A stretch of 64,000 nt of DNA from Christensenella sp. UBA1214. Its GTDB lineage: Bacteria > Bacillota > Clostridia > Christensenellales > CAG-138. The stretch spans positions 2,001 through 66,000 of the forward strand of contig DBXK01000041.1 of NCBI GenBank assembly GCA_002309375.1. The letters run 5' to 3'. Positions 5,804 to 64,000 of this stretch are shown here, piece after piece. Position 1 is the first letter of the stretch, and each line of letters starts with the position of its first letter. A program made the translations under genes and the position numbers. The notes beneath the pieces are model-generated. The model saw only the letters and a list, made by a program, of their open reading frames with translations. It searched no databases and was not told where the DNA came from.

Positions 5804-5818
5804 CGCTTTGCTTAAATC

Positions 5819-9765: not shown

Positions 9766-9976
9766 TGCAAAACATCCTTCCGCCCGCAATGCGCGGGCTT
9801 TGTTAACTGCGTTATAACATGAACCGGCGGCAATGTCAACCCGCGCGGCGAAACGGGATTTATTTCCCGTTTTTTCCGCTCCGGTGTTCCAATTCCCGCC
9901 AGGCTGTGTTATAATAAATTATGTATGTGTCTGCACCGATCCGTGCAGAGAATGAAATCATCCGGAGGCTTCAGCT

Positions 9977-49144: not shown

Positions 49145-49278
49145 TGGAAGTTGAAATTGAACGGAATCCTTAACCGTTCAGAGCCGTTTTGAAGCTCATT
49201 TCCGGCGCGGCAGGAGTTCCCATATTCGCCGCCCAAAGCGAAATTCATCGCGGCAGTAATTCACAAGGAGGAAACAGA

Positions 49279-52200
49279 ATGAAGAAGTTTCTATCAATGC
49301 TTCTGGCAGTTGTGATGGTACTCGCTCTTGCAGTGCCCGCACTGGCGGAAACCAAGGCTCAGCACGGCGATATAACTGTCAGCCAAGCTCAGCCTGAACA
49401 GCAGGCTCAGGCTGACACCGCGAAGCTCCGCGGCGCGTCTTCCTGGGATTTTGAAACCGACCCCGCGGAGTCCGGCTTCACCTACATCGACCAGGACGGT
49501 GACGGCTTTAACTGGGTCTGGCACCAGAACACCGGCACCGGCAACTACACCACCCACAGCGGCGACGGCGTCATGACCAGCGCTTCGTACGACAATGACA
49601 ACCAGGCTGCTCTGACTCCGGACAACTGGATGATCAGCCCCGTCTGCGAAGGCACTATGCTGACCTTCTGGATGTGCGGTCAGGATGCCAGCTACTGCGA
49701 AGAGTACGTCGGCGTTTACGTATCCACCGACGGCGGCGAGACCTGGAGCAACGAGATTGCGGGTTTCACCGCGACTTCGGAGATGACCCAGCAGGCAGTC
49801 AACCTTTCCGCTTACACCGGCGAGATCCAGTTCGCGCTGCGTCATTACAACTGCACCGATATGTTCTACCTCGATATCGACGATATCGAGCTGATGAGCG
49901 AGGTCCCGCAGTGCACCGTTACCTTCGTTGACGGCTATGACGGCACGACTATCGACACCATGACCGTCGAGGCCGGCACCGTGCTCAACGAGCGCGATTT
50001 CCCGACTCCGCCCACTCACGAGGGCTATGAGTTCACCGGTTGGGACTACAACGGCGCAAGCATCGCGGCGGATACCACCATCACCGCGAACTACAAGCAG
50101 GAAGGCTCCAATATTTGGGACTTCGAGACCGATCCGACCGCCCAAGGCTTCACATTCCTGGATCAGGACGGCGACGGCAACGGCTGGGGAAGGCTGAGCG
50201 ATGCAGAGTATGCTCACGAGTCGACCTATGCTATGGCTTCCGCTTCCTATTCCAGCGGTGCGCTGACTCCGGATAACTGGATGATCACCCCCGCGTTCGA
50301 AGCGGTCGGCATGAGCTTCTGGACCCGCGGCCTGGGCTATCCCGATCACGTCGGCATCTTCGTATCCACCGACGGCGGCTCCACCTGGTCCGACAAGGCG
50401 CTGCTCGAATACGACACCGACGGCACGGCATATGAAAAGAAGACCGTCGATCTTTCCGCTTATAAAGATCAGGAGATCATGGTCGCTTTCCGCCATTACA
50501 ACTGCACCGACCAGTACTACGTCTTCATCGATGATATCGAAACCTATAATGCTGCCCCGGAATATACGGTCACCTTCTATGATATCATGGATGAGTCCGT
50601 TATCGGCACCATTACCGTTGAGCAGGGCTACGTGCTGACCGAGGAAGACTTCCCCGAGGTCCCCGAGCACGAGGGCTATGTGTTCTACGGCTGGAGCTAC
50701 GACGGCACCGGCATTGCGGAAGACACCGCCATTATCGCGTTCTATTCCTATGATGGCGTCTATGAGAACACCCTTTGGGATTTTGAAGACGAGATCCACC
50801 CGATCGTAACCGGTTTCCATACCGATGACGGAAACGGCGACGGCAACACCTGGGAATGGTTCAATGCGCCTGACTACGCAAACAGCACCAGCCATATGAT
50901 GGCCTGCCTGTCCAACGGCATGGATTCGATGGATGATTGGCTCATCACGCCGAAATTCACCGGCACGCTGCTGACCTTCTACTATCGCGGCTACAGCGCG
51001 AGCTACACCGATCATCTCGAGGTTTACGTTTCCGCGGACGACGGCGCGACATGGAAGCCGGTCGGCGAGTACGAAGTGACCGGCGACACCTACACCATGG
51101 CGAGCATCGATCTCAGCGAGTATGAAGGCACCCTCCGTGTCGGATTCAATGTATCCGTCGCAGGCGGCGCATACGTCTTCATCGACGATATCGAGGTCAT
51201 GAGCGAGACTCCGACCTACACCGTAACCTTCATCGACGGCTTAACCGGCGAACCGTTCGACAGGCCTCTGACCGTTGAGATGGGCTACGTTCTTGGCGAG
51301 CGCGATTTCCCGACTCCTCCCACCCACGAGGACTACGAGTTCTTTGGTTGGGATTATGACGGCAGCCCCATCGTCGCCGATACCGAGATCACCGCGATCT
51401 ATGGTTATGCAGGCGTTTATTCCAACACGATCTGGGATTTCGAAACCGATCCTTCCGCGCAGGGCTTCCTGATGCTGGATGAGGACGGCGACGGTCATAA
51501 TTGGGAATGGCAGGAGCCCGGTTCAAGCTACGTACACAGCACCTCCCACTCCATGTATTCCGCCTCCTATGAGGGCAACGGTGTCGGCGCACTCAGCCCC
51601 GACAACTGGCTGATCACCCCGAAATTCACCGCTTCGATGCTGACCTTCTGGATCCGCAACTACAGCGGAAGCTATAAGGACCACCTCGAGGTCTACGTTT
51701 CGACCGATAACGGCGCGACCTGGAGCGAATCCGTCCTGAGCATTGATCCGGCCAATACTTTTGAACAGTACACGATCGATCTTACCGAATACGGTGAGGC
51801 AGAACTCAGGGTCGCTTTCCGCCACTGCAACTGCAGCGATAAGTACCGCTTCTATCTCGACGATATCGAGATCATCACCCTTGCTCCCACCGCCATCGTT
51901 ACCTTCGTTGACGGCGTTGACGGAAGCGAGATCAATACTCTTGAGGTCGAGACCGGCTACGTTCTGACCGAGGAAGACTTCCCGACTCCTCCCGAGCATG
52001 AAGACTGGACCTTTGTCGAGTGGGATTATGACGGCAGCTCGATCCTCCAGGATACTACCGTTACCGCGCTTTACAGCTATGATAAGCTCTTGATCTGGGA
52101 CTTCGAAACCGATCCCTTTGAACAGGGCTTCATCCTTCTCGACGCCGACGGCGACAGCAGCAACTGGCAGTGGGCGACTTCCGGCTACTCCGGCTACTTC

Positions 52201-53334
52201 CACGAGGGCATCGGCTACATGATCGATAAGTATAAGACCGATCCGGACGATTACCTGATCACCCCCGCCTTCACTTTCAACAGCGATGTCTGCCAGATTA
52301 GCTTCTGGGCGAACTCCTACAGCGCGAGCTGGCTCGAGTATCTCGGCGTATACGTATCCACCGATGACGGCGAGACCTGGAGCGAAGAGATCTGGGGACA
52401 GACCCTCACCAACATCACTCCTCAGGAATTCACCATTGACCTCAGCGCTTATGCAGACGACACGATCCGCGTTGCGTTCAGGCACTACAATTCCCCCGAT
52501 AAGTTCTATATCTTCCTCGACTACATCACCCTGACCGACGCTACCCCCGTTCCTCTTGCGGAACCGCATAACGTCTACTTCAAGGTCGGCAATGCAACCC
52601 TCGCGACCCTCGAGAACGTCCTCGAGATCACCGAAGAGGATCTGCCCGAAGGACCTGCCTGGTACGGCTTCACCTTCACCGGCTGGGATATGACCGTTGA
52701 GGAGATCAACGCTGCTCTCGCCGAGGGCGACGTCACCGTCAACGGTATCTTCGTCCCCGCGGAGAATGCGTTCACCGTCACCATCATCTACGGCGAAGAA
52801 GTGACCGAGAAGACCTTCACCGAGAGCCGCTGGCTCACCGTCAAGGCGAAGGCTCAGAACAAGGCCGGTCAGTACTTCCAGTATTGGACCATGGACGACG
52901 TCATCATCAGCTACAGCCCGCGTGCAAACGTCCGTGTTGTCGATACCTGCACCCTTGAGGCGCACTACGCTGACGAGCCCATCGAGGCGACCGGTGTTGC
53001 GCAGCTCATCAAGGCGACCTTCGCAGGCGGCAGGGAGACCTTCGTAGTTTACCTCGCTGCACCGAACGGCGCGACCATGACCGACGCAGGTCTGCTCGCA
53101 TCGCCCGCGACCGAGTATGATCCCGAGGACGGCGAGCTGACTCCGGACAACGCGAAGTTCTATAAGCACTGCAACATCAACGATCCTTCGCAGCCCGCGA
53201 CCTACACCTGGATCAAGACCAATGTCCAGGAGGGCGACGTCTGGTACATCCGTCCGTTCGTCACCTATGAGCTCGACGGCGAGACCTTCACCGTCTACGG
53301 CGAGACCACCGCTGTCAAAGCCGGCAACGAATAA
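49279..53334 (+). CDS. Large secreted protein: 5 x (cleaved-adhesin / choice-of-anchor-J-like domain + Listeria-Bacteroides repeat) plus C-terminal domains
   Basis: AAGGAGG SD and signal peptide MKKFLSMLLAVVMVLALAVPALA. Five modules start with WDFE(T/D)DP...GF...D(Q/E/A)DGDG..W and contain LTPDNW(M/L)I(S/T)P, VYVSTDGG.TWS, RHYNCTD and IDDIE. Each is followed by a TVTF(V/Y)DG...EGYEFTGWDY-type repeat. Confidence 0.85.
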   Translation: MKKFLSMLLAVVMVLALAVPALAETKAQHGDITVSQAQPEQQAQADTAKLRGASSWDFETDPAESGFTYIDQDGDGFNWVWHQNTGTGNYTTHSGDGVMTSASYDNDNQAALTPDNWMISPVCEGTMLTFWMCGQDASYCEEYVGVYVSTDGGETWSNEIAGFTATSEMTQQAVNLSAYTGEIQFALRHYNCTDMFYLDIDDIELMSEVPQCTVTFVDGYDGTTIDTMTVEAGTVLNERDFPTPPTHEGYEFTGWDYNGASIAADTTITANYKQEGSNIWDFETDPTAQGFTFLDQDGDGNGWGRLSDAEYAHESTYAMASASYSSGALTPDNWMITPAFEAVGMSFWTRGLGYPDHVGIFVSTDGGSTWSDKALLEYDTDGTAYEKKTVDLSAYKDQEIMVAFRHYNCTDQYYVFIDDIETYNAAPEYTVTFYDIMDESVIGTITVEQGYVLTEEDFPEVPEHEGYVFYGWSYDGTGIAEDTAIIAFYSYDGVYENTLWDFEDEIHPIVTGFHTDDGNGDGNTWEWFNAPDYANSTSHMMACLSNGMDSMDDWLITPKFTGTLLTFYYRGYSASYTDHLEVYVSADDGATWKPVGEYEVTGDTYTMASIDLSEYEGTLRVGFNVSVAGGAYVFIDDIEVMSETPTYTVTFIDGLTGEPFDRPLTVEMGYVLGERDFPTPPTHEDYEFFGWDYDGSPIVADTEITAIYGYAGVYSNTIWDFETDPSAQGFLMLDEDGDGHNWEWQEPGSSYVHSTSHSMYSASYEGNGVGALSPDNWLITPKFTASMLTFWIRNYSGSYKDHLEVYVSTDNGATWSESVLSIDPANTFEQYTIDLTEYGEAELRVAFRHCNCSDKYRFYLDDIEIITLAPTAIVTFVDGVDGSEINTLEVETGYVLTEEDFPTPPEHEDWTFVEWDYDGSSILQDTTVTALYSYDKLLIWDFETDPFEQGFILLDADGDSSNWQWATSGYSGYFHEGIGYMIDKYKTDPDDYLITPAFTFNSDVCQISFWANSYSASWLEYLGVYVSTDDGETWSEEIWGQTLTNITPQEFTIDLSAYADDTIRVAFRHYNSPDKFYIFLDYITLTDATPVPLAEPHNVYFKVGNATLATLENVLEITEEDLPEGPAWYGFTFTGWDMTVEEINAALAEGDVTVNGIFVPAENAFTVTIIYGEEVTEKTFTESRWLTVKAKAQNKAGQYFQYWTMDDVIISYSPRANVRVVDTCTLEAHYADEPIEATGVAQLIKATFAGGRETFVVYLAAPNGATMTDAGLLASPATEYDPEDGELTPDNAKFYKHCNINDPSQPATYTWIKTNVQEGDVWYIRPFVTYELDGETFTVYGETTAVKAGNE
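49444..52760 (+). repeat. Five tandem coding modules of about 660 nt
   Basis: The WDFE codons recur at 49444, 50116, 50776, 51433 and 52096 (periods 672, 660, 657 and 663 nt). The copies are diverged at DNA level. Confidence 0.85.
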
Positions 53335-53375
53335 CACAGGACCCGGCCACAGCGCCGGATAACCGAACAAAGAGA

Positions 53376-53408
53376 AACGGTCTTCCGAAATCGGGAGACC
53401 GTTTTTTG
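53376..53408 (+). terminator. Rho-independent terminator
   Basis: AACGGTCTTCC-gaaatc-GGGAGACCGTT followed by TTTTTG. Confidence 0.8.
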
Positions 53409-53593
53409 TTCCGCTTTTACGGAGGGCAAGGGGAGCGGCGCGGAGCTTTTCAATGGCGCCTGTGCCTGCCGTGCGGTAATGCTTTTGATCGAGCTCATTA
53501 TACCCGCGGAACATAAACCCTGCTTAAATCAGAAAAATGCGAAAAGAAAAGAGGGCGCGGAGCCCTCTGTTCGTTTCGGTTTGCTTTTCGGGA

Positions 53594-53690
53594 TCAGTGC
53601 AGCGCAAGCACGAGGCGCATGATCGGGATTGCGTCGGTCGCGTTGACTCCGCCGCTCGTGTTCGCCCGCGGTGTAGTACATGGATGCGAC
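53594..53690 (-). pseudogene. Remnant of the 3' end of a dockerin-encoding gene
   Basis: The minus strand ends ...SGGVNATDAIPIMRLVLALH*, resembling the second dockerin segment of neighbouring genes (DGSVNATDAVLIMRIALSIS*). The frame closes about 32 codons upstream. An AGAGGGC-tccg-CGCCCTCT hairpin plus T-run (about 53554-53575) follows the stop. Confidence 0.4.
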
Positions 53691-53823
53691 GGTCATGCCC
53701 TCGTTCGGGTGATGCGGTCAGTTGCCGTTGGATCGCACTGCCTGCCGGAGAGCCCGGAAAGCATGGCCGATGCCGATCCGGACTTGCGGGAAGATTTTTT
53801 CTTCACGATGACATCGAAAACCG

Positions 53824-53852
53824 TTGTACCGAAGCCGGGATTGTGGTAAAAT
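53824..53852 (+). promoter_or_regulatory. Promoter TTGTAC-17-TAAAAT with extended -10 TGTGGTAAAAT
   Basis: Read directly from the sequence, about 22 nt upstream of ATG 53875. Confidence 0.5.
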
Positions 53853-53874
53853 CAAGAAAAACGGGAGGTTGTTT

Positions 53875-54987
53875 ATGAAAAGATTTTTCAGGACGCAGCT
53901 CAGTCTGCTGCTTGCGGCCGCGTTATGCTGCGCTTTAATCATGTCATCCTCGGCATATGCCCGAAATGAAGGCGCCGATCGCGTCAGCCCCGACGCGGCT
54001 GAAGAGGAGATCGGATCGGCTGAGCCGAAAGCAGGAGAGCTCACGCTCGATCCTTCGTCGCTGACCGTTCCCGTTTTCAGCGGTTATTTCGGCGTTCGGA
54101 TCCGCGCATACATAAACGGAGTCGAGCAATCGCCCTTCGATATTACCTGGACGAGCTCCAGCTCATACGTCGCATCCGTGGACAACGTGGGCTGCGTCTA
54201 TGCTTCATCCGCAGGCACCGCGACCATAACCGCCCGCACGCAGAACGGCAGGACAGCGACCTGCACGGTCACGGTTGTATCGAACACGAATTATCCCAAC
54301 GTCAATGCCGTCAGCTTTACGCAGATCTCCGAGCTCTCATATGTGAATCCCCGCGTGGGCATCGGTCCTTTATGCGGCGGCGAGCCTGTTATTATCCGAA
54401 GATTCCTTCCCTCGAAGGGCACAAGGATGGACAACCCGGGCAGCAATCCGAACGCCACCAACGGCTGGGCATTCACCTATGCGACGGGTTTCCGCTTTTC
54501 CGCGCAGGCAGGGCATGATTACACCATCTCCGTTGAACCGTATGCGGGGCAGCAGGATCACGACGTTGAGGTGTTCCTTTCGGTCTACAACAGCAACTAT
54601 AACCTTGTCACATACGCCTACAGCGTCCATACGGGCGAGTACCCGACGGTCAACCTGCATACGACGAGCAGCGGTTATTGGTATGTTGTTCTGACGCCCG
54701 TCAACTATAACAACCAGTGGGGGAACGGTTATGTGAGATTCAAACTGACCGATCCGTCCGCGCCTCCTCCTTCCGAATGGCTGCTCGGCGATGTGGACCA
54801 CAACGGGACAGTCAATATCGTGGACTCCGTGACGGTGCTCCGCCATGCGCTCGGCCTTGTTATGATCCCCGATGACGCGCTGGCTCAGGCCGACGTTACG
54901 GGCAACGGCTCGATCGACGTTACGGATGCGCTGATGATCATGCGCTACGCCATGGGCGTGATCGATTCATTAAGCATCGAACGGTGA
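53875..54987 (+). CDS. Secreted dockerin-bearing protein with Big_2 Ig-like domain and PPC-like beta-sandwich
   Basis: GGGAGG SD. Signal MKRFFRTQLSLLLAAALCCALIMSSSAYA. Big_2-like DITWTSSSSYVASV...GTATITARTQNG. Dockerin GDVDHNGTVNIVDSVTVLR...DVTGNGSIDVTDALMIMR. Confidence 0.8.
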   Translation: MKRFFRTQLSLLLAAALCCALIMSSSAYARNEGADRVSPDAAEEEIGSAEPKAGELTLDPSSLTVPVFSGYFGVRIRAYINGVEQSPFDITWTSSSSYVASVDNVGCVYASSAGTATITARTQNGRTATCTVTVVSNTNYPNVNAVSFTQISELSYVNPRVGIGPLCGGEPVIIRRFLPSKGTRMDNPGSNPNATNGWAFTYATGFRFSAQAGHDYTISVEPYAGQQDHDVEVFLSVYNSNYNLVTYAYSVHTGEYPTVNLHTTSSGYWYVVLTPVNYNNQWGNGYVRFKLTDPSAPPPSEWLLGDVDHNGTVNIVDSVTVLRHALGLVMIPDDALAQADVTGNGSIDVTDALMIMRYAMGVIDSLSIER

Positions 54988-55047: not shown

Positions 55048-55536
55048 TCAGAAGACCATCATCGCGTGAGCTGCGAGACCGCTGCGGACATTTCGCAGTG
55101 GTTCACCGATCAGACCGCCCGGTGTGGTGGAGCAGTCGGCGGGAAGCTCCTTGCCCGATTTATTTTCCCGGACGTTGACGCCGTACAGCTTGACCGTTGA
55201 ATCATTATTGACGTAGCCGCCGCCGTCGGTCTCCCGGCCGCCCTTGACGCAGCCGCTGCCGACGCTGTCGATAATGATCAGCGCCGCGCCGTTCTTCGCC
55301 TCAAAGACGTGCTTGGAGCTGCCCGAGGAATCGCGCTTCAGGTCAACAGTATGACCGGCAAGGCCGATGATGTCTATATCAAGCAGCGCGATATCAACGA
55401 GGTCTTTGCGGGCGAACTCAAGCGCTGCCTCGGCCTTCGTGAAGCCGTGCGCCTCGTCTACACCGTCGATCTCGCGGCACATGGCAAGCGTGTCCTCCAT
55501 CAGCAGCCTTTCATCGTCTACGCATATCGCCTTCAT
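55048..55536 (-). CDS. Chimeric/atypical ORF: N-terminal fragment of a response-regulator receiver domain fused to a Gly-rich beta-helix-like segment; no DNA-binding output domain
   Basis: MKAICVDDERLLMEDTLAMCREIDGVDEAHGFTKAEAALEFARKDLVDIALLDIDI is a receiver N-terminus running up to the phospho-acceptor Asp region. The remainder (NGAALIIIDSVGSGCVKGGRETDGGGYVNNDSTVKLYGVNV) does not look like a receiver or an output domain. Codon usage looks coding. Confidence 0.5.
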   Translation of the reverse strand: MKAICVDDERLLMEDTLAMCREIDGVDEAHGFTKAEAALEFARKDLVDIALLDIDIIGLAGHTVDLKRDSSGSSKHVFEAKNGAALIIIDSVGSGCVKGGRETDGGGYVNNDSTVKLYGVNVRENKSGKELPADCSTTPGGLIGEPLRNVRSGLAAHAMMVF

Positions 55537-55679
55537 TTGCTCGCCTCCTTTTCGGGTACCAGCATGGTTAAGACAGTCCCCTCGCCGATAACGCTCTCTA
55601 TCTTAAAGCTGCCGCCGCACATGCTTGCAAAGATGCTTAATGACCACAAAATTGATGAGTAAAAAGCAGGGTGCTCAGT
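55533..55679 (-). pseudogene. 5'-truncated histidine kinase: only the last ~30-45 codons (end of HATPase domain) remain
   Basis: The minus strand reads ...LSIFASMCGGSFKIESVIGEGTVLTMLVPEKEASK*, with the stop overlapping the downstream ATG (ATGA). The frame is closed by TAA at 55680-55682, and the sequence upstream is AT-rich non-coding. Confidence 0.6.
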
Positions 55680-55703
55680 TTATTCAATAGGGGTGTTCAA
55701 AAA

Positions 55704-55764
55704 TAAACGATTACCCCGATTTGCTGCACAAATAAACGATTACACACCACAAAGTAAACGATTA
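55704..55764. repeat. Three direct copies of TAAACGATTA (extended AARTAAACGATTA)
   Basis: Perfect 10-mers at 55704-55713, 55733-55742 and 55755-55764, with spacings of 29 and 22 bp start to start. Confidence 0.9.
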
Positions 55765-55862
55765 GCACAGATAAATGCAAAAAAGCCTCACTCGGTAACC
55801 TCCGGGAGGGGCTTTATACTACATATCGACGCCTATAATTTGCTATATCTGCTAAATTTTTC

Positions 55863-55912
55863 ACACAAAAATACCCTTCATACCGAATTGTATCAAAATT
55901 GGTATGAAGGGT
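55863..55912 (-). terminator. Strong rho-independent terminator directly after the tRNA-like element
   Basis: 12-bp perfect inverted repeat ACCCTTCATACC / GGTATGAAGGGT with a 16-nt loop. On the minus strand it is followed by ATTTTTGTGTG. Confidence 0.8.
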
Positions 55913-56014
55913 TGGCGTACCTGCCGGGATTCGAACCCGGGACCTACAGAGTCGGAGCAGCTTGTTCTGCTTAGCTCAAAAGCCCAGATATTGCTTGATT
56001 TTTCAAGCAGGTAC
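55913..56014 (-). ncRNA. tRNA-Arg(CCG)-derived element. The 3' 45 nt (55913-55957) are canonical; D arm and 5' anticodon stem are replaced
   Basis: Minus strand 55957->55913 reads CTCCGAC TCTGT AGGTC CCGGG TTCGAAT CCCGG CAGGTAC G CCA. GTACCTGC at 56014-56007 is perfectly complementary (8 bp) to the 3' acceptor strand. The 50 nt in between form two unrelated hairpins. Confidence 0.5.
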
Positions 56015-56053
56015 TGGTTTTTTGAAGCTCCGCGGCAGTGCTTCATTATCCGC

Positions 56054-56082
56054 ATTATCCGCGATATCAACATTAGTCTCAA
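56054..56082 (-). promoter_or_regulatory. Candidate promoter TTGAGA-17-GATAAT for the tRNA-like element
   Basis: The minus strand reads TTGAGA ctaatgttgatatcgcg GATAAT. GCGGATAAT is tandemly duplicated. The -10 lies about 40 nt upstream of the GTACCTG 5' end. Confidence 0.35.
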
Positions 56083-56465
56083 GAGTTGTGTAGCATAAAT
56101 GTAGTATCTGCAAGAACTGCCTATGGATATCGTCACATCATTATCGCAAACTATCTATACTTCTTTCGGCTAATGCCATCATAAGCTATGATTCGAGTTG
56201 TTGTACTGAAAAGACTTTTGATAATTAACGCATATTGACTCTTTCGAGTATTATTCTTGATTTAGCAGCATTATGGAATAAGCGAAGGGTTTGGCTTTAT
56301 TTCACTTGCGGTCATTGCTGTGCTATGATGGTTTTGCCTGACAATAGTAAACGCCGAAATATATTTTCAATTATTTGTCCCCTTTTGACATTCCGGATTG
56401 TTAATGTATACAAAGGGGAAAGACAGACATCCAACATCGGAGGTGAACACAGGGGGTCTGCTTCG

Positions 56466-56494
56466 TTGACAATTGCCGTTTGAACTGCTATAGT
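56466..56494 (+). promoter_or_regulatory. Near-consensus promoter TTGACA-17-TATAGT
   Basis: TTGACA attgccgtttgaactgc TATAGT lies about 118 nt upstream of ATG 56613. Confidence 0.6.
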
Positions 56495-56612
56495 ATTTTT
56501 GCAGTTAACAGCAGGGCCCCTCTCCGCCAACGATATCTCGGCAAAATATTATGATTGCCGGATCAATCGCCGAAAAACAACCGCAGTTTACTGTTACGAG
56601 GAGGTTTAAATC

Positions 56613-58355
56613 ATGAAAAGAATAACTGCACTGTTTCTGCTATTTGCCCTTATTCTTCCGATAACGGGCAAAATTGCCGCTGCAGAATCCGTTTGGGATT
56701 CGCAAAAAGTTGAAGAAGTCGCAACCGAATATCTGAGGGAAGCGGCCTATTCGCAGTATCTCTATGAAACCCACGATCTCGATCGTTATACGATTGAAAG
56801 CGTTCCCACAGACCAGAAAGCGATTCTTGCTGAAAAAACAGCGGGATATGCGGCGGTTCGCGAAAACCGAGAAATTGTTCCGTATCGTGAAACCGAGATA
56901 GCTACCGGCAGCCTGAACGCTTTGGTCAGCAATCTAGAGTTGAATAAAGACATGGTTGCTTTCTATGCATATCTCGGAGAAAGCAGCAATACTTCATATG
57001 ATTTCTTCACTGAATCATATGAAATACTCGAAACCGATCTGGAAGGCGACTTCGCTTTTATTGACCTTTATGAAAATTTGGATTTCAAGTACAGTGACGT
57101 GGACTTTACTTCTTCCGCATCTCCCCATTACTTTATTTCCTTGGTAAAGTTCAATGGCGAATGGTTTATCATGGCTGTTGAATCGGATGATTCGATGTAT
57201 GAGGTTTATAGAGATTCAGAATTCGATTTGCAACAGCATATCGAGAATTTTGACAACGCCCAAGATGCAGACATTGGAATTGAATTATCTGAGGAGCACG
57301 AATCACGAGATATCGAATCCTATGACGTTACGATGGATCGTTTGTATGATCGTTCAAATGCTGCAAACTACGCATTAACATATTGCAAAAAAGGCGACAT
57401 GGGAAATGGAAGTTATTCATCTTGGAAAAACGACAACTTTCATTATGGCAGCAATAATTGCATGAGATTCGTTTCACAATGTCTATGGGCTGGTTTTGGC
57501 GGAAGCAATGACACCGCAAGCATTCAGGCTTGTAAGGCAATGGATCGCCAGGACGAAAACGGCACAGACAAATTAGTCTGGTTTGGACGGAATGTGCAAT
57601 CGGGACTAACAACAGAATCTCATTCATGGATCAGCGTAAGTGTGTTTGATTTATATATTCACCATAAATACTTGGACAGTGCAGGCAATCCTCAGACAGC
57701 GAGTTCCAGTGAAGACCGTATGCGCTGCTCTACTTATGAAGTTGCTAGAACTCAAAACCAGATGCTCTCTGGAAGTTCAAATACAAACAATTATAAGTTG
57801 TTAGGTGCCGCGGGTTTGATTATAAAACCTAACCAGAGCATTTATTCCCATGCTATCCTTATAACACAGGTAAAAGACAGCAGCGGAGTGGCCACCAGAG
57901 ATACAGTTTATTTCACGGCCTACAATGGTTGTTACAAAAACTATAAGCTATCAGCTGTTTATTATAAAGGTCAGAGTTCGAATACGGGATATGAGCTTGA
58001 AGTTGTAATGCCGGGATATTTGCAGAACGGCAATCCATCAGGCGACAACTATTTCTATGGAGAGCTCATGCCTACACTCACAACCGGAAGCAGTAAGGTT
58101 GTTACTGCTAAGGCAAGAGATACGGCTTCTACAATGTGCATGTATATCTATAAACCTAATGCAAGCACAGCGAGCTATTCATTTTATGGGAGCAACTGCT
58201 CAACGCTTCAAAGCTCGTCAATAACTTTTAACCAAACCGGATTATGGAGAGTTGTGATTAGAAGCAGTAACAGCGATCCAAATCCTCTTGCCACGTACAC
58301 ATTTACCATCAGGGTTGCATCATCAACTGAAGCAGGTAATGATCCCGAACCTTAA
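56613..58355 (+). CDS. Secreted putative amidase-domain protein (Amidase_6-like cysteine hydrolase), low G+C
   Basis: GAGGAGG SD. Signal MKRITALFLLFALILPITGKIAAA. YDRSNAANYALTYC...GSNNCMRFVSQCLWAGFGG matches the remembered 'putative amidase domain' pattern (Y.R..A..YA..Y...DC.NFVSQCL.AGG). Later candidate catalytic His at SIYSHAILITQV. Confidence 0.65.
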   Translation: MKRITALFLLFALILPITGKIAAAESVWDSQKVEEVATEYLREAAYSQYLYETHDLDRYTIESVPTDQKAILAEKTAGYAAVRENREIVPYRETEIATGSLNALVSNLELNKDMVAFYAYLGESSNTSYDFFTESYEILETDLEGDFAFIDLYENLDFKYSDVDFTSSASPHYFISLVKFNGEWFIMAVESDDSMYEVYRDSEFDLQQHIENFDNAQDADIGIELSEEHESRDIESYDVTMDRLYDRSNAANYALTYCKKGDMGNGSYSSWKNDNFHYGSNNCMRFVSQCLWAGFGGSNDTASIQACKAMDRQDENGTDKLVWFGRNVQSGLTTESHSWISVSVFDLYIHHKYLDSAGNPQTASSSEDRMRCSTYEVARTQNQMLSGSSNTNNYKLLGAAGLIIKPNQSIYSHAILITQVKDSSGVATRDTVYFTAYNGCYKNYKLSAVYYKGQSSNTGYELEVVMPGYLQNGNPSGDNYFYGELMPTLTTGSSKVVTAKARDTASTMCMYIYKPNASTASYSFYGSNCSTLQSSSITFNQTGLWRVVIRSSNSDPNPLATYTFTIRVASSTEAGNDPEP

Positions 58356-58396
58356 ATGACACCCATATCTGGATATTAGCAAGGAGGAATAAAACA

Positions 58397-59383
58397 ATGA
58401 GAAGAATTTCCATTAGAGCGAGTGCGCTTATGCTCACTTTTATCCTGTTGCTGTCGGCCTGCGCCTGCGTCGGAAACGGCTCGGAGAACGGGCAGCAAAC
58501 GGCGGATAACAGCGCCGCACCGGCAACGCAGGAGCCTTCAGCCGAACCGACCGAAGCGCCGATGCCGGAACAGACCGCCGAGCCCACGCCGGAGCCTGCG
58601 GAAAAACCGACGCCGGGACCGACAGCAATGCCTTTGGACGGTCCCTCAACGGAAGAGGAGAAGCAGTATGCCGAAGCGGCATATCAGTTCATTGAGCAGA
58701 TTGGCAGGATCCATAATAAGCATTTCTCGCCGGAGAATACAACCGTCAGCGAATTCTATTGGCAGCCGGAGTTGCTTAGCGTGATTTTTCAGGCAGAAGA
58801 GCCCGGTCAGTCAATAAGAATGCTCGGCAAACCCGACGGCAACGGAGGCTATACTTTCTCAATGAAGGATATGACCATGGTAATGATCAACGATTTCCGT
58901 GAGCAGGAGTGGCTCGACTCATATTCGGAGGATATTTGGGCGGCCTATCATGAGAGTTTGGGCGAGGCACGCTTTGTCATAACGCCCGAGGATATCGCGG
59001 CGACGGGCTGCACGGCGACAGAAGGCGAGGAATATCTGCTTGCAGTCGGCCGCTGCTGGCAGCAAAAGTACGCCGAATTCTTCATGAACCTGCCCGAAAA
59101 CTATCCGGGCTATTGCTATGAAATGCTGCCGCTCGACTGCACTGTCGATCACTACTATGCGGATCAGAATAAAGTGCAGTTCGTCGCGGGCTTTGCATCC
59201 CGCCCGGCGGATCTGAGGGCAATAGCATATCTCTACTTCGAGATCGACGAGGGTGGAGGCTTTGCCGACGAAAGCTATCCGCCGGAGATCTACGGCTGGC
59301 TTGTGACCTACGGTGGCACCATACTCGAGCAGCAGGCTGACGGAAGCTGGGTCGGCACGACGAGCTGCCATAACTTCGGCTGA
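58397..59383 (+). CDS. Lipoprotein of unknown function (paralog family A, copy 1)
   Basis: AAGGAGG SD 41 nt after the amidase stop. Lipobox LLLSAC. PE/PT-rich linker. C-terminal Cys-containing domain with no family recognised. Confidence 0.7.
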   Translation: MRRISIRASALMLTFILLLSACACVGNGSENGQQTADNSAAPATQEPSAEPTEAPMPEQTAEPTPEPAEKPTPGPTAMPLDGPSTEEEKQYAEAAYQFIEQIGRIHNKHFSPENTTVSEFYWQPELLSVIFQAEEPGQSIRMLGKPDGNGGYTFSMKDMTMVMINDFREQEWLDSYSEDIWAAYHESLGEARFVITPEDIAATGCTATEGEEYLLAVGRCWQQKYAEFFMNLPENYPGYCYEMLPLDCTVDHYYADQNKVQFVAGFASRPADLRAIAYLYFEIDEGGGFADESYPPEIYGWLVTYGGTILEQQADGSWVGTTSCHNFG

Positions 59384-59456
59384 TTAGCCAAGGCCTGCGG
59401 CGAGCTCGGCATGAAGACTGGCAAGGACTTTATTGAGCATCGATATGCGCTTTGAA

Positions 59457-59495
59457 CAAATGCGCCGCCTCAAGGCGGCGCATTTGTTGTTTTCA
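59457..59495 (+). terminator. Rho-independent terminator
   Basis: CAAATGCGCCGCC-tcaa-GGCGGCGCATTTG followed by TTGTTTTC. Confidence 0.8.
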
Positions 59496-60130
59496 AAAAG
59501 CGTTGGTTCCTGATACCTTTGATTGACTCTTTTATGATACCATAGATGAATCCTTCCTTAAAAGGAAAATACACTTTGCTTGCAGAAAAAACGGCACATG
59601 CTCCTCATCTATCGGCTTTGGTATCGAGGACGGTAAGCCCTATAATACTGTTTGCGCAGGCGGTTGCGGCGGCACCCCCAAGCACCTGTAAGTCTGCTCG
59701 AAAATCTAGATGTTGTTTCCACGCTTGAACAGCTATCCGATGCCACTTACAGCTTGAAAGATACCTGCTGAGGTGAGTTGCCTGCAATGGCTATGCGCAA
59801 GGTGTTGTAAAAAAAGTCTATGCTAATCACCGCTATTAAAACAAAAACAGGTAGACTCTTATATTCGCGGAAGGAGAGGCGTAAGGTGCGAAGCATGGCT
59901 TCACCTCATCGAAGAAGAGCACCTAGTTTTGGCTCGTTTTCCTCCAATATAAGGCCTGAATAAGTCGTTGCAGAGTAAGACTCAACGCACGGAAGAGCTT
60001 CCTTTTCATCACCTGCGTCGTTCTGGAGACGGTTTACAATACTAAGATGCCTCAATGCATCAGTGCCGCTATCGGAGATATTGCCTACGATCCGGAGACA
60101 TAACAACATTATCAGAGAGGAGTGTTCAAA

Positions 60131-61075
60131 ATGAAAAGTATCAAAACAACATCTATCACCGTCGCGGTATCGATCCTTCTTTCGCTTCTGATGATCGCGG
60201 CTGTCGCAGCCTGCAGCGCAGTGCGAGAGGAACCGACTCCCGCGCCTGACGATCAGCAAGCGCAGGCGACCACGGAACCGACCGAAGCGCCGACGGCCGA
60301 GCCGACAGCCGAGCCGACGCAGGAGCCGGAGGAGACCCCGGATCCGCGGATCCCGGATGAGGAATGGTTTGTTGACCGATCCTGGCAGTATGCGGAGCTT
60401 GCAAATCAGACTTTCGGCTATTGCTTCTCAAAGGATCAAAGGGAAGTCGATAAAGCCGGAAGCATAAGCGATTGGTACATCGTCCGTTTCAAGACCGATG
60501 AGAATGACGAGCTGATGTGCGTTTTTGATTATTCATCGGATGACGGGGAATGGCAGCTGAACGAGCGAACTATCCGAACCGATCTGTCTGAAGAGGCGCT
60601 CGAAACGCTTTCCGGTCAGTACAGACCGTGGAATGAATGCGCAGAAGAAGTCCCCTTGACCGGCCTTGAAATTCGTGTAACTGCCGATGAGCTGGAAGCT
60701 GCAGGCTGTCATCTGAGCGGCGGCGAATTGACGGAAGAGGATCTTGCGTCAATATCCAGATACAGAGCGGAGCTGTTGGCGGCGCAGTATGTTGACTGCC
60801 CGGAGGATAATATGTTCCGGTGCTATGAAGCAGACGTATCGGAACTTGGGCCGGTAACAAGAAGCGGTGATGAGTATTTGCAAGGCTTCCTTCTGATCGT
60901 CCGCCCGGTCGAGCCGCGGTGCTTCAGCCTGCAGTACGCCGACGTGGGCTGCAATATCCTCGGCGACGAATGGGGAGAAGATGCAGGCTGGTTCAGTATT
61001 TATTTTCAGGTCAGCACCGTTGTTGAGGCTGACGGCAGCTTTACGCTGACAACTTGGTGTACAAGCGGCGATTAA
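60131..61075 (+). CDS. Lipoprotein of unknown function (paralog family A, copy 2)
   Basis: GAGAGGAG SD before ATG 60131. Lipobox AAVAAC. TEPTEAPTAEPTAEPTQEPEE linker. C-terminal domain alignable with copy 1 (VTADELEAAGC / ITPEDIAATGC; CPEDNMFRCYE / LPENYPGYCYE; EADGSFTLTTWC / QADGSWVGTTSC). Confidence 0.7.
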   Translation: MKSIKTTSITVAVSILLSLLMIAAVAACSAVREEPTPAPDDQQAQATTEPTEAPTAEPTAEPTQEPEETPDPRIPDEEWFVDRSWQYAELANQTFGYCFSKDQREVDKAGSISDWYIVRFKTDENDELMCVFDYSSDDGEWQLNERTIRTDLSEEALETLSGQYRPWNECAEEVPLTGLEIRVTADELEAAGCHLSGGELTEEDLASISRYRAELLAAQYVDCPEDNMFRCYEADVSELGPVTRSGDEYLQGFLLIVRPVEPRCFSLQYADVGCNILGDEWGEDAGWFSIYFQVSTVVEADGSFTLTTWCTSGD

Positions 61076-61122
61076 AGCCGCGCCTCGTTTCCTCCTTCAT
61101 TTTTGATCAATAACTGGCACAT

Positions 61123-61148
61123 GCGCCGCCGCAAGGCGGCGCTTTTGT
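61123..61148 (+). terminator. Rho-independent terminator, same stem core as 59457..59495
   Basis: GCGCCGCC-gcaa-GGCGGCGC followed by TTTTGTC. Confidence 0.8.
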
Positions 61149-61348
61149 CTAACCTCGCAAAAATATATTTATTTTCTTTTGTCTCCGATTGCGGTTCTCG
61201 ATTGTAATAGTATTAAAAAGCGGTAAAGCGATCTGTGAAAGGCGGTAGAAACGGAAATGAAAGATGAACTGATCTATACCGGGCGATACAGGGATCGCGA
61301 TGAGGAACTGATCGACGAGTGTCTATAGGAAAGTCTTGATAAAGAATA

Positions 61349-61370
61349 GGCTGTGCTTTGAAGCACAGCC
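61349..61370. terminator. Hairpin downstream of the minus-strand lipoprotein gene
   Basis: GGCTGTGC-tttgaa-GCACAGCC, with a weak T-tail on the minus strand. Confidence 0.5.
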
Positions 61371-61411
61371 CACAAAGACTATCTGGTATTGTGTTGATTT
61401 TGCAGCTTGTA

Positions 61412-62515
61412 TTACATAGTTATCTTCCAGACGATATATGCATCCTTAAGTGAAGCGGCAGCATAGACAGATCCATCTGCGCCGAGCTGATAGATAATAC
61501 AGGGATTCCAACGGTCGTCGTCACCATATGGTATCTCAACTTCGGATGCGATCTGGCCATCTGCAGCGATCTTCAAAAGCTTCTCGGTCTCTCCGATTTT
61601 ATTCAAATACAGATTGCCTTCCGTATCCCTTCCAATCAGAATGTAACCGATATCCGGCAGTATGAGTTCCTTGCCGTTGTTCAGCAGCAAAGTCGTTTTC
61701 GTGCCGTTCGCTTCTGGCAGCATCCGGCATATTGTCTCGCTTTTATGCCAGATCCTGTACATATCGTTGCTCAACCGATAGAACTCATATTCCTCAATGT
61801 AATTGCCTTCCCTGCCCATTGTTTCGCAGACTATAAAAGCCGGATCTCCGTTATCATAATGCTGTGCGCCTACTGCGCAGTTATACAGAAACGCCGCAAA
61901 ATTGCCTATATAGGGCGTTGTTGTATCATAAATCGTTTCTCCGGTCTCTAAGCTGAACGCTCCGATCTCTTTGAACAAAACACTGCCTAACGCCACAGTA
62001 AAATTGCTTCCGTTATGATCTATGCCATCGCATACGACCCTCCTAACAAAGCGACCGTTTTTAAAGACCTTGAGATCATAGATTGTCGGCGCGAGATGCC
62101 CGACGATTATCGTGTCGCCGTCGAGAGCGAAAATCTCAGGTCCGGTATAAAAACCGTTATCGATGCAGTAGCGAACTGCGTTGTTATCTGCGTCTTCCGG
62201 CAAATAAGGATTATTCTCTCCCGCATAACAGGGCACAAGCCTCAACACTTCTTCAGCACATTTATCAAAACACAATACAACCGTGACCGGCTCTGCGGTC
62301 TGCACCGTCGTCGGCTCAGCTGTCGCATCAACGACCGGTTCGATCGTAGGGTTTGGTGTAGTTGATTCCGCTACAACGGAATCTGCGGTCGGTCCCTCAT
62401 GAGCGACTTCCGTAGGTGCTGATGAAGCATTTACACCGATACCGGCAGTGTCTTTGCATGCTGTAATTGAGCAAAGAAACGCTATCAGTATGAAAAGAGC
62501 GATGGTTCGTCTCAT
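61412..62515 (-). CDS. Lipoprotein of unknown function, low G+C
   Basis: Lipobox LCSITAC and a Thr/Pro/Glu linker. The beta-rich C-terminal part has DGxxY-type strands (TEGNLYLNKIG, GADGSVYAAAS). Confidence 0.65.
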   Translation of the reverse strand: MRRTIALFILIAFLCSITACKDTAGIGVNASSAPTEVAHEGPTADSVVAESTTPNPTIEPVVDATAEPTTVQTAEPVTVVLCFDKCAEEVLRLVPCYAGENNPYLPEDADNNAVRYCIDNGFYTGPEIFALDGDTIIVGHLAPTIYDLKVFKNGRFVRRVVCDGIDHNGSNFTVALGSVLFKEIGAFSLETGETIYDTTTPYIGNFAAFLYNCAVGAQHYDNGDPAFIVCETMGREGNYIEEYEFYRLSNDMYRIWHKSETICRMLPEANGTKTTLLLNNGKELILPDIGYILIGRDTEGNLYLNKIGETEKLLKIAADGQIASEVEIPYGDDDRWNPCIIYQLGADGSVYAAASLKDAYIVWKITM

Positions 62516-62578
62516 ATAGAACTCCTTTCATAAATTAAGTAATGTAATTAACAGGTCTTGTTGCTCTAAAGCACGCAA

Positions 62579-64000
62579 TCACGGTCCCATTAAAACCGGC
62601 ATAAGGGGATTCATTGTTTCATAGTTGCAAACAGAACACCGATAAATCGAGCCGAGATTAACAAACGAATGATAACCAATGTCTTTTCTTTTTCCACATT
62701 TATTGCATTCGTGATAGTGGTAAATCTCCGTATGACCATAAGCCAATCCGTAAAAATGCGATTCATTGAATGAATAACCGCAAATGGAGCAGGTACAGGT
62801 ATGATTTGAGCCGTTGTCAGTATATGTGTTTTGACATCCACTAATAGCGCAGGAATATGGACTTTTCATTTTAAATCCCTTCAGGTATGAAAAACTATAA
62901 GCCTGCTCAACAACTTTACCGGCTCCGCTAGAAGCATGAATTATGTTTACATAGGTGGTACTGTTCCAACTAACGTACAGTACAATATGATGAGCCGCAC
63001 TATCTGCTCTAACCATGAAGTCCATTGGCTTCATATTAGCAAAATGTGCCGCTGTTTCTGTACCAGTAGTTGAAACGGTTCCAATATCATAGCCATTCCC
63101 ATTCATTGCAAAACTATCAGTAGTCCAATAGTTGCTGGACGGAGCATTATAAGCATAGCATGCCAATCCGGAACAGTCAAGTCCGGTAGAACCGTAACAG
63201 GCCGGGGATTGCAGGTTGCCTGCGGTGTAGTACTTTCCCAAACCATCACCGTAGTAAATCTGGTTTAGTTTGCTATCAAAATCGCTTGGTCCATTATGCA
63301 TTCCCCGACAGTAAGGAATTCCGGTCATTGCCTTATTAGTCGTGACATTTCGTTCCTCAGGAGGCAACAAAATCTGATAAGAATTGCCGTCAGGTCCAGT
63401 ATAAGTCCTTTTGTAACCGTTTTGAGTCGGATTAAACGTCCATGAGTGGGTCGCACAGTTGCGTGCTCTTGCAAGGACTTGCGATCGCGTTAGAGAAGTA
63501 ATTGGTACTCCTTTAGTGCTTGCGTTGGATTTACTGTTACTGCAGAGAGCATATGCTTCTTTTGCTATAGCATCCATATTTGAATCATAGGAAGCACAAA
63601 GATTAGGCCTGGTGATATAAATGCCTTCATTAAGACATTGCATCATGTAAATAGAGCCGTCATCTGACACATATATTTCATCCTCGGGATAAGCATATAC
63701 ATCGTCTTCAGCAACAATGCACCCAACCAGCTCTCCGTTACCGTTGAATACTCTGATAGTTTTCTCAAACATTATAACGGGAACCTCAGGAACATATTCA
63801 TATGCAATGATTACAATCTGCTCTTCAGATCCGCGAACAAACTGTGCTATGGTATTATATCCAAGCTCGATTGATACAGGCCTGTCTGTTACACCTTTAA
63901 CTTCGTATGCCGAACCGCTAACCGCACAGCATGATATCTGACCGATGGGTTCCCAGTCGTGCGTTTTTCTGTCAAATGCATAGGTCTGAAGGTCGTGGCT
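62579..64000 (-). CDS. NlpC/P60 cysteine peptidase with C-terminal Cys/His-rich (zinc-ribbon-like) tail; 5' end outside the window
   Basis: GLDCSGLACYAY catalytic Cys motif and AAHHIVLYV...IIHAS His region. Tail is CAISGC...HTCTCSICG...HYHECNKCG...YRCSVCNY. I translated the frame upstream of the listed ATG 63772 and found no stop up to base 64000, so the gene probably starts beyond the window. Confidence 0.75.
   Translation of the reverse strand, partial: SHDLQTYAFDRKTHDWEPIGQISCCAVSGSAYEVKGVTDRPVSIELGYNTIAQFVRGSEEQIVIIAYEYVPEVPVIMFEKTIRVFNGNGELVGCIVAEDDVYAYPEDEIYVSDDGSIYMMQCLNEGIYITRPNLCASYDSNMDAIAKEAYALCSNSKSNASTKGVPITSLTRSQVLARARNCATHSWTFNPTQNGYKRTYTGPDGNSYQILLPPEERNVTTNKAMTGIPYCRGMHNGPSDFDSKLNQIYYGDGLGKYYTAGNLQSPACYGSTGLDCSGLACYAYNAPSSNYWTTDSFAMNGNGYDIGTVSTTGTETAAHFANMKPMDFMVRADSAAHHIVLYVSWNSTTYVNIIHASSGAGKVVEQAYSFSYLKGFKMKSPYSCAISGCQNTYTDNGSNHTCTCSICGYSFNESHFYGLAYGHTEIYHYHECNKCGKRKDIGYHSFVNLGSIYRCSVCNYETMNPLMPVLMGP

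Follow-up and report, generated by a model that had tools for sequence, protein, structure and literature searches.

Secreted cell wall hydrolases endanger the cells that produce them, and the ways in which single-membrane bacteria restrain such enzymes, or use them against neighbours, are known for few cases. In Bacillus subtilis, IseA (YoeB) is a proteinaceous inhibitor of the NlpC/P60 D,L-endopeptidases (PMC7299342). The same species encodes YjcM, an uncharacterised Amidase_6 protein (PMC10653849), and yjcN lies within the Rok-bound 'prophage 4' region, Rok-bound regions being described as A+T-rich (PMC2978689). An integrative model of the complex between YjcM and YjcN, the product of the neighbouring gene, has been derived from cross-linking mass spectrometry (9a4p); neither protein is mentioned in the main text of two papers on in-cell cross-linking in B. 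subtilis. In Vibrio cholerae, TseH of the TseH-TsiH pair has been reported to show HHpred similarity to amidase_6 (PMC4453574). Here, we describe a locus from an uncultured rumen Clostridia member, situated at the right-hand end of a 64,000-nt window of Christensenella sp. UBA1214 (contig DBXK01000041.1, positions 2,001 to 66,000), which carries two unrelated, analogous cassettes; each is composed of a secreted Cys-His wall-hydrolase-type enzyme and a tethered lipoprotein encoded directly downstream. All coordinates are those of the window, unless they follow an L number, which denotes a homologous contig or locus.

The two enzyme-lipoprotein pairs are independent of each other, both pairings are conserved across lineages, and they reside in a rearrangement-prone accessory patch that runs from 55.66 to at least 65.2 kb. 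The lipoproteins are probably the cognate binding partners of the hydrolases, and it is possible, at slightly less than even odds, that they act as inhibitors or immunity proteins. For the complete statement, cognate partners that restrain the hydrolases in a region of mosaic origin, we estimate a probability of about 0.5. One of the two partner families, here called LipoX, is an extracytoplasmic domain that had not been described before and whose structure is predicted with confidence. If the partners do inhibit, they would be new proteins that specifically inhibit Amidase_6 and NlpC/P60 enzymes, and would hint at a pathway that senses attack on the wall.

Two conserved enzyme-lipoprotein cassettes

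The first cassette is transcribed from the plus strand and begins with ORF1 (56613..58355), which encodes a secreted Amidase_6 cysteine hydrolase of 580 aa, an assignment based on profile, structural model and motif. Its product consists of a signal peptide, an NTF2-like domain, the Amidase_6 domain with Cys283 and His413, and a C-terminal Ig-like sandwich (model mean pLDDT 72). The match to Amidase_6 (PF12671) scores 29.6 bits against a gathering cut-off of 23.2 (E 8.7e-7), the domain is present in all 8 ORF1 homologues, and both Cys283, within the consensus motif DCMRFVSQC, and His413 are invariant across the 8 sequences of the family. When the model was searched with Foldseek, the top match in the PDB was B. 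subtilis YjcM (9a4p_A, E 1.9e-8). ORF2 (58397..59383) follows after 41 nt and encodes the LipoX lipoprotein of 328 aa, in which the lipobox LLSAC is succeeded by a Pro/Thr/Glu tether of ~60 aa and two alpha+beta subdomains. LipoX is not homologous to the amidase.

ORF1 and ORF2 appear to be a single transcription unit, as the only terminator of the two genes is the intrinsic terminator after ORF2 (59455..59488, plus strand), a 90%-similar copy of which stands after the paralogue ORF3. A near-consensus sigma-70-type promoter (56466..56494, plus strand; TTGACA-17-TATAGT with TG, 11/12 matches) lies where the upstream region is best conserved and is kept in L003, L008 and L103. It is followed by a conserved 5' leader (56495..56612, plus strand) that is ~80% identical to the leader of lone LipoX genes in L003 and L008; the counterparts are found at L103 368-487, L003 9888-10003 and L008 3872-3987. 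In the predicted fold of the leader a CCUCU sequence pairs with the GGAGG ribosome-binding site, and translational control is possible, judged from only four sequences with one compensatory change.

The pairing of amidase and LipoX extends to four lineages, in which every ORF1 homologue whose contig was reached through the protein look-up directly precedes a LipoX gene. In the nearest of these, L103, the amidase is 72% and LipoX 59% identical, and both the leader and the upstream repeat are kept. The pair persists at 41% and 27% identity in L015 (LipoX profile E 6e-49) and at 33% and 24% in L016-18 (E 4e-32). An early inference that ORF2 is unlinked to the amidase, drawn from its lone orthologue in L003, was overturned by these distant amidase loci.

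The second cassette is encoded on the minus strand, where the C-terminal 473 codons of ORF5 occupy 62579..64000. No stop codon lies upstream of the first in-window ATG, and the full gene, read from the Logan contig L001, starts at ~64504 and encodes 641 aa with a signal peptide. The signal peptide is followed by an NHL-like beta-propeller, an NlpC/P60 domain and a Cys/His-rich, zinc-finger-like tail. Profiles of the family identify the propeller as NHL-type, with a match to the PknD sensor (E 3e-10). The match of ORF5 to NlpC/P60 (PF00877) reaches 17.6 bits, which is below the gathering cut-off of 23 (E 0.0037), and the family profile matches NlpC/P60 chains in the PDB at E 0.03-0.45 only; across 14 family members the motif GLDCSG (G441-L-D-C444-S-G446) and H506 are invariant, and an IHA motif follows. 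The tail (residues ~545-641, window 62579-62870) shows a conserved spacing of H596, C600, C603, H612, C623 and C626, and the profile of the family has a weak match to C2H2 zinc fingers of eukaryotes (Gfi-1, E 1.8e-4), which is odd for an extracytoplasmic bacterial protein.

Downstream of ORF5 lies ORF4 (61412..62515, minus strand), a lipoprotein of 367 aa with the lipobox ITAC, a long Pro/Thr/Glu-rich tether and a globular domain, and the operon ends at a terminator at 61346..61373 on the same strand. The globular domain of ORF4 is homologous to the N-terminal propeller of ORF5 (hhalign probability 96.5%, E 8.6e-10, 229 columns), a relationship that is visible only by profile-profile comparison, plain BLAST finding no similarity between the two proteins. 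Thus, ORF4 is not simply the unrelated lipoprotein for which it was taken when the sequence was first read. No homology was detected between its globular domain and LipoX.

This second pair is kept in two lineages beyond the window (three in total). In L021, the enzyme is 53% and the ORF4-type lipoprotein 31% identical; in L019, the values are 44% and ~31%, and the lipoprotein is duplicated in tandem. Scans of genome and metagenome contigs with ORF5 yielded no relative. Beside the ORF5-type pair, L021 harbours (3911-7067) a split enzyme, whose propeller (296 aa) and catalytic half (364 aa) are separate proteins, as well as a 374-aa lipoprotein with an ORF5-type propeller; the propeller therefore circulates in free, fused and lipid-anchored form. 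Overall, the partner diverges faster than its enzyme in all five comparisons, three for the amidase pair and two for the NlpC/P60 pair.

All five products carry export signals, namely signal peptides in ORF1 and ORF5 and lipoboxes in ORF2, ORF3 and ORF4, and the gene inventory given by the sequence-only reading holds. The lipoboxes (LLSAC, VAAC and ITAC, respectively) are found near residue 20-30, and lipidation is predicted from them. The same reading had cast the lipoproteins as cognate partners of the hydrolases, which is supported by the conserved adjacency of ORF1 and ORF2 in L103, L015 and L016-18 and of ORF5 and ORF4 in L021 and L019.

The LipoX family

ORF3 (60131..61075, plus strand) is an unpaired LipoX paralogue of 314 aa with the lipobox VAAC; it is 24% identical to ORF2 (E 4e-15) and is followed by a terminator at 61118..61148 on the plus strand. 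The size of the family depends on how it is searched: a word-indexed search returned 9 true relatives, and an exhaustive profile search over representatives at 50% identity returned 64 at E <1e-10. In the LipoX alignment the lipobox cysteine (C24) is invariant. The AlphaFold model has a pLDDT of ~90 for residues 85-328, where it forms two alpha+beta subdomains; a disordered tether of ~60 residues precedes them. Among ORF2 and five close relatives, the first subdomain is only 36-51% identical, in contrast with 77-87% for the second.

The lipoprotein domains had been said to match nothing recognisable, and database searches bear this out. LipoX had no match in Pfam, NCBIfam, PHROG or PDB sequences beyond its low-complexity tether, and its model had no match among PDB and BFVD structures at E up to 0.001. 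Its sole local fold match, a designed cystatin-fold protein of 76 aa, was not taken as evidence.

About one-third of the LipoX representatives (21 of about 62) are long proteins of 590-1280 aa. Ten of these were scanned; six have an N-terminal Peptidase_M56 (BlaR1) domain and one or two C-terminal LipoX domains, which thereby occupy the position of the extracellular sensor, and one has RCC1 repeats in place of Peptidase_M56. In L014, a BlaI gene is followed by a BlaR1-LipoX gene with two LipoX domains and then by two LipoX lipoprotein genes, and L104 likewise contains BlaI and BlaR1-LipoX. The location of LipoX in BlaR1-type proteins agrees in general terms with a domain for binding or sensing. 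Unpaired or tandem copies are represented by ORF3, by the lone orthologue with the same leader in L003-L012, and by genes in L013 and L014. A sigma/anti-sigma-like pair is encoded near the lone LipoX gene of L003 (12250-13499).

A mosaic accessory patch

The block that houses the five genes is set off from the rest of the window by its composition. Measured in 1-kb windows, the background from 1 to 55.5 kb, to which all z scores refer, has a mean G+C of 0.572 (sd 0.030, range 0.486-0.643). The windows from 55.5 to 58.5 kb lie at 0.404-0.436 (z -4.5 to -5.5) and those from 62 to 64 kb at 0.419-0.439 (z -4.4 to -5.0), and the tetranucleotide distance of 55.5-58.5 kb is elevated by z = 11.7. The break is sharp at ~55660, with a G+C of 0.576 over 55048-55660 versus 0.376 over 55661-55910. 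Hence, the abrupt change that had been noted at about 55.66 kb is confirmed by both the sliding-window G+C and the tetranucleotide profile; the 60-70% claimed for the preceding 55 kb was too high, the background being 55-62%. Low G+C characterises ORF1 (0.421, GC3, the G+C at third codon positions, 0.40), ORF4 (0.475), the in-window part of ORF5 (0.423) and the noncoding DNA of 55661-56612. ORF2 (0.561, z -0.4) and ORF3 (0.551, z -0.9), previously described as intermediate, are in fact at background level.

To the left of the break, the remains of a two-component system can be discerned. A chimeric ORF with host-level G+C (55048..55536, minus strand) joins a response-regulator receiver fragment to an unrelated, beta-helix-looking C-terminal piece; its receiver part spans aa 4-63 (Response_reg E 2e-4) and covers positions 2-59 of the 111 of the Pfam profile only. 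It is preceded by the C-terminal remnant of a histidine kinase, ~38 codons long (55540..55655, minus strand), which was read from the sequence as ending in ...LSIFASMCGGSFKIESVIGEGTVLTMLVPEKEASK (C-terminus ...GGSFKIESVIGEGTVLTMLVPEKEASK before the stop) and whose stop overlaps the ATG of the regulator. The kinase gene is cut at ~55655, where the G+C drops. With a truncated kinase and a partial, fused receiver, the two-component system is therefore indeed broken, as had been suspected. The adjoining A+T-rich spacer (55661..55912, 0.376 G+C) contains two hairpins, including the inverted repeat 55873-55912.

The interior of the block is a patchwork. Logan contig L001 is identical to 61251-64000 and extends the sequence to ~65225, and ORF5 crosses the window edge, so that the region does continue beyond the window as had been anticipated; L002 covers 55912-61214. 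Both contigs end at copies of a 55-nt element that sit at cassette borders: a diverged copy at the left end of the amidase cassette (56357..56410, plus strand), a second copy (61156..61213, plus strand) and a third, outside the window, read from L001 (1-55, corresponding to ~65171-65225). The element (AAAATATATTTATTTTCTTTTGTCCCCGATTGCGGTTCTCGATTGTAATAGTAT) is promoter-like, with the core TTGTCCCC-N2-TTG-N8-12-ATTGT. It recurs in L003 at 9750-9798 and 11097-11150, flanking the lone LipoX gene, and in L021 at 241-267 and 7210-7236, ahead of the ORF5 homologue and a CBM96 gene. Its copies are thus located 5' of genes for exported proteins, namely the amidase operon, the lone LipoX, a 167-aa gene, the ORF5 homologue and the CBM96 protein. 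The element may be a promoter or regulator site common to these genes, and recombination may use it as a substrate as well. A reading of the block as integron cassettes was rejected, because the repeat is upstream and promoter-like, no integrase is present, and promoters and terminators belong to the cassettes themselves.

Two gene remnants lie between the cassettes. Between ORF2 and ORF3 lies a frameshifted TSCPD-domain pseudogene (59569..59807, plus strand), detected by tblastn, which matches the TSCPD protein of L008 in two pieces in different frames (46-55% identity, E 1.5e-11) and also at the DNA level; L008 has an intact TSCPD gene ~2 kb upstream of its ORF2 orthologue. The second remnant (61257..61337, plus strand) comprises ~23 codons, followed by a stop, of the 5' end of the 167-aa gene (70% aa identity over aa 1-27). 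In L003 that gene stands behind LipoX; in the window it is cut at ~61339, the junction with the inverted ORF4/ORF5 cassette.

Comparison with a related genome, the rumen Clostridia metagenome-assembled genome GCA_017441685.1 (L003-L012), adds a difference in gene content. Its ORF2 orthologue, 91% identical in amino acids and 94% in nucleotides, stands alone, is preceded by the same 227-nt region as ORF1 in the window (80% identity) and is followed by sequence that in the window is found after ORF3 (90% identity). Gene presence and absence thus varies between near relatives. For four core proteins of the window, a collection of 15 billion proteins that includes GCA_017441685.1 holds no relative of at least 90% identity, yet ORF2 reaches 91%; to judge from these identities, this suggests that the LipoX cassette moved between lineages.

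Separate cassettes, border repeats and gene remnants therefore make the block accessory and mosaic, and it looks as if recombination at repeated elements put it together in several events, not in one integrase-mediated insertion. A foreign origin had been proposed from the sequence alone, and the shift in G+C and tetranucleotides, the separate cassettes and the lone ORF2 orthologue elsewhere support a block that is foreign in composition, is mosaic and differs from one relative to the next.

The wider amidase family and the composition of hydrolase genes

A metagenome scan with the amidase recovered 80 loci, mostly from the human gut, at 20-44% identity, the weakest of which cover part of the protein. 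Eight of ten distant loci inspected have an adjacent lipoprotein, membrane-anchored or secreted protein of another family. In several of the distant loci (L054 502-1917, L059 3136-4598 and L070 3696-5306), genes for an ECF-type sigma factor, a DUF4367 protein, which is probably an anti-sigma factor, and a small Ig-like secreted protein lie upstream. One human-gut homologue (38-44% identity; L028, L057 9771-12496, L102) has a membrane-anchored neighbour of 195 aa; its locus adjoins Viral_Rep+helicase and FtsK/SpoIIIE genes, is also present in IMG/VR and has the look of a small integrative element. The L057 copy of the amidase is split over three reading frames.

Low G+C is a recurrent property of the hydrolase genes, seen in most of the high-G+C hosts examined. 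Amidase genes have a G+C of 0.38 in L015 (6385-8088), 0.40 in L016 (10001-11596) and 0.43 in L103 (485-2227), with flanks of 0.58-0.64 and a GC3 of ~0.8, and the ORF5 homologues of L019 (10001-12022) and L021 (427-2382) have 0.40-0.42. Taken together, the hydrolase genes lie at 0.38-0.43 (GC3 0.31-0.40) as opposed to 0.55-0.64 (GC3 up to 0.84) for their neighbours. This persists where the enzymes are only 33-44% identical, and the partner genes are nearer the G+C of the host; exceptions are L058 (0.56) and L077 (0.64). The cause could be that these genes were transferred repeatedly, or that selection favours lytic genes that are A+T-rich and poorly expressed.

Possible functions of the lipoproteins

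In the favoured model, each lipoprotein would bind its own enzyme in the zone of the wall next to the producer membrane, and binding would hold lysis of the producer in check, whether for self-protection (immunity) or for spatial control, leaving free enzyme to act further out or on neighbouring cells. The hypervariable subdomain 1 of LipoX would set specificity. ORF4 might alternatively serve as a propeller mimic that competes for, or masks, the wall receptor of the enzyme, or that dimerises with it.

It is important to point out that several observations weigh against this model. At E <1e-3, a LipoX gene is missing from all 80 metagenomic amidase loci, and the partner family is therefore not fixed; two loci, L058 and L077, are without an obvious tethered neighbour. 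LipoX is fused to BlaR1-type and RCC1-repeat proteins, as would be expected of a general extracytoplasmic binding module, and thus its ligand need not be an amidase. The enzymes carry ordinary Sec signals only, with no known toxin-delivery domain, and peptidoglycan is their presumed substrate, assumed from family membership. Finally, the amidase pair of L016 is situated between the housekeeping genes for glycogen phosphorylase and FtsH, so the pair is not always island cargo, and this setting suits an autolysin no less than a weapon.

The most serious competitor, which we consider unlikely, is that each enzyme is a housekeeping autolysin and that its lipoprotein is a membrane-anchored docking or activating factor at sites of wall growth or division, as judged by analogy with NlpD/EnvC acting on amidases and FtsEX acting on CwlO; the lipoprotein would then not be inhibitory, and the locus would serve strain-specific remodelling. 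Apart from the L016 setting, the near-consensus vegetative sigma-70-type promoter of the operon speaks for such a role, and the propeller common to ORF4 and ORF5 could mediate heterodimerisation or co-localisation; the YjcM-YjcN complex indicates neither direction. Set against this, the families are very small, with 8 and 15 clusters in a set of 5.8 billion proteins, and patchily distributed, near relatives differ in presence and absence, partner copies occur unpaired and in tandem, one partner subdomain is hypervariable, and the G+C of the enzyme genes is strongly deviant. All of these traits are atypical of core morphogenetic machinery.

An improbable alternative is that LipoX binds or senses a ligand, for example muropeptides released by the amidase, rather than the enzyme. 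The lipoprotein would capture or report wall fragments, the BlaR1 fusion would signal wall damage to the BlaI-type repressor, and the pairing would reflect a shared pathway. The fusion of LipoX to Peptidase_M56 in six of the ten long representatives scanned, the BlaI and BlaR1-LipoX genes of L014 and L104, with two further LipoX lipoproteins in L014, and the frequency of unpaired LipoX copies are all in keeping with a sensor. A sensor of fragments would, however, leave ORF5-ORF4 unexplained, a pair that is analogous but has a partner of another fold; transporter or recycling genes are absent from the immediate neighbourhood, and a hypervariable subdomain 1 is easier to reconcile with a protein target that varies than with a muropeptide of conserved chemistry.

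A bolder version of the restraint model combines the two functions, and as a joint proposition it is a long shot. LipoX would be a new immunity-and-sensor fold, the tethered form of which neutralises a secreted Amidase_6 bacteriolysin. The LipoX of BlaR1-type proteins would be a decoy that detects the incoming amidase of competitors, or the damage caused by it, and detection would switch on the downstream unpaired LipoX genes through BlaI, as an inducible defence against wall weapons in Gram-positive gut bacteria. ORF5-ORF4 would then be a second, convergent solution, in which immunity is conferred by a tethered copy of the targeting propeller of the enzyme.

A tRNA-like fragment and the origin of the block

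Genomic islands that target tRNA genes are inserted by an integrase and duplicate the 3' part of the tRNA. Near the left border, a tRNA-Arg(CCG)-like 3' piece of 45 nt (55913..55957, minus strand), parsed by hand, runs from the anticodon loop to CCA. Read from 55957 to 55913, it consists of CUCCGAC (the anticodon loop, CCG), the UCUGU stem, the AGGUC variable loop, the T arm CCGGG-UUCGAAU-CCCGG, the acceptor strand CAGGUAC, G and CCA; the 5' half that a standard tRNA would have is missing. Next on the minus strand comes a native-looking terminator, made up of a strong hairpin and a run of T, which lies within the A+T-rich spacer. The earlier claim of a tRNA-Arg(CCG) 3' fragment fits the hand parse, and the tools recover less: an Rfam small-window scan gave weak tRNA-like matches to the T arm and acceptor only (55917-55953, minus strand), ARAGORN called no tRNA at the piece, and Rfam found no known RNA over 50-64 kb, the leader of the amidase operon included.

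An upstream GUACCUG pairs with the 3' strand of the acceptor of the piece and closes a 102-nt tRNA-like fold (55913-56014, minus strand) that includes a hairpin (6-bp stem, 4-nt loop); the 161-nt stretch 55860-56020, which takes in the terminator hairpin, has a folding z of -5.3. No tool calls a tRNA or a tmRNA in the 102-nt fold, which could be due to chance (about 0.5% for a 7-mer) or be a degenerate tRNA-like element.

The sequence-only reading saw in this piece the signature of site-specific integration. On that account, everything from 55.66 kb onwards would be one island, inserted into a tRNA-Arg(CCG) gene by a tyrosine integrase; the 45-nt piece would be the displaced copy of the attachment site, and the intact tRNA and the integrase would lie beyond 65.2 kb. 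We give it a slim chance. A stretch of 45 nt from anticodon loop to CCA has the classical size of such a duplicate, the orientation of the piece places any island to its right, where the low-G+C block indeed starts, and the Logan contig L002 begins at 55912, beside the 3' end of the piece at 55913, which would suit a repeated sequence there. Against a single island stands, first of all, the inventory: neither an integrase nor a second 45-mer is found between 55.0 and ~65.2 kb, no ORF of >100 aa other than the five genes is present from 55.66 to 65.2 kb, and the piece, which occurs once in the window, has no exact match in the contigs of 185,579 species genomes or in IMG/VR viral contigs. The 3' side of the piece is not intact host sequence but 250 nt of A+T-rich DNA that abut the truncated kinase gene. 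The interior is composite (LipoX genes with host G+C, the TSCPD pseudogene, the truncated 167-aa gene and three border repeats), each cassette occurs separately elsewhere, and the ORF2 orthologue of L003 and L008 is at another site without the tRNA piece.

A derivation from decayed prophage lysis or tail-lysin genes is rejected as very improbable: a weak PHROG match of ORF5 to a minor tail protein (E 0.0011) and the human-gut amidase homologue on an IMG/VR contig beside Viral_Rep and FtsK-like genes are outweighed by the lack of other phage genes and of a holin, by the Sec signal peptides, by ORF1-4 having no meaningful PHROG match and by the null of the LipoX model in BFVD. A reading as an anti-phage defence system was likewise rejected, as none of the five proteins matched a PADLOC family at E up to 0.01.

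Outside the block, at 49189-54987, the window encodes a 1381-aa secreted protein with repeated modules of ~200 aa, followed by a 387-aa protein with Big_2 and dockerin domains; given these dockerin-bearing and modular secreted proteins, the host is likely to be a cellulosome-bearing rumen member of the Clostridia. The reading frame of the 1381-aa protein is accompanied by long overlapping antisense ORFs, as is typical of high-G+C DNA.

Comparison with known systems

The tRNA-targeted islands resemble the locus in the 45-nt stretch, parsed by hand as anticodon loop to CCA, at a low-G+C border, with the block on the expected side. They differ from it in the integrase and second copy that are missing up to ~65.2 kb, in the outer flank, which is not intact here, and in cassettes that also occur separately.

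YjcM-YjcN provides the closest structural parallel. YjcM is the best structural match of ORF1 and has been modelled together with the product of its neighbouring gene, and the A+T-rich region of yjcN parallels the low G+C seen here. The resemblance of ORF1 is at the level of the fold, because the ORF1-family profile matched no PDB sequence at E up to 1; since that profile missed YjcM too, 9a4p may be outside the PDB sequence library that underlies the null result for LipoX.

The T6SS (type VI secretion system) pairs Tae-Tai and TseH-TsiH share with this locus a papain-fold wall hydrolase gene that adjoins the gene of a small, fast-evolving cognate protein active in the same compartment, and they also have unpaired immunity copies. 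Unlike these pairs, the enzymes here use ordinary Sec export with neither a T6SS nor a type VII secretion system, and the partners are lipoproteins on long tethers. The host, as a member of the Clostridia, presumably has a single membrane.

IseA is the nearest functional precedent for an action of ORF4 on ORF5, as an extracytoplasmic protein of Firmicutes that restrains NlpC/P60 autolysins. No sequence relationship to IseA was found, and ORF4 differs in being a paralogue of the propeller of the enzyme itself. IseA is secreted rather than lipid-anchored, and to our knowledge its gene is not next to the genes of its targets.

Several features of the locus, namely the partner families, lipid anchoring by long tethers, Sec-only export, a propeller-mimic partner and the BlaR1 fusions, are absent from the libraries searched. 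BlaR1/MecR1-BlaI differ in that their sensor is a penicillin-binding domain instead of one or two LipoX domains, and the window holds no such gene; as in those systems, the M56 proteins that carry LipoX homologues elsewhere have them C-terminally, in the place of the extracellular sensor, and are encoded behind a gene for a BlaI-type repressor.

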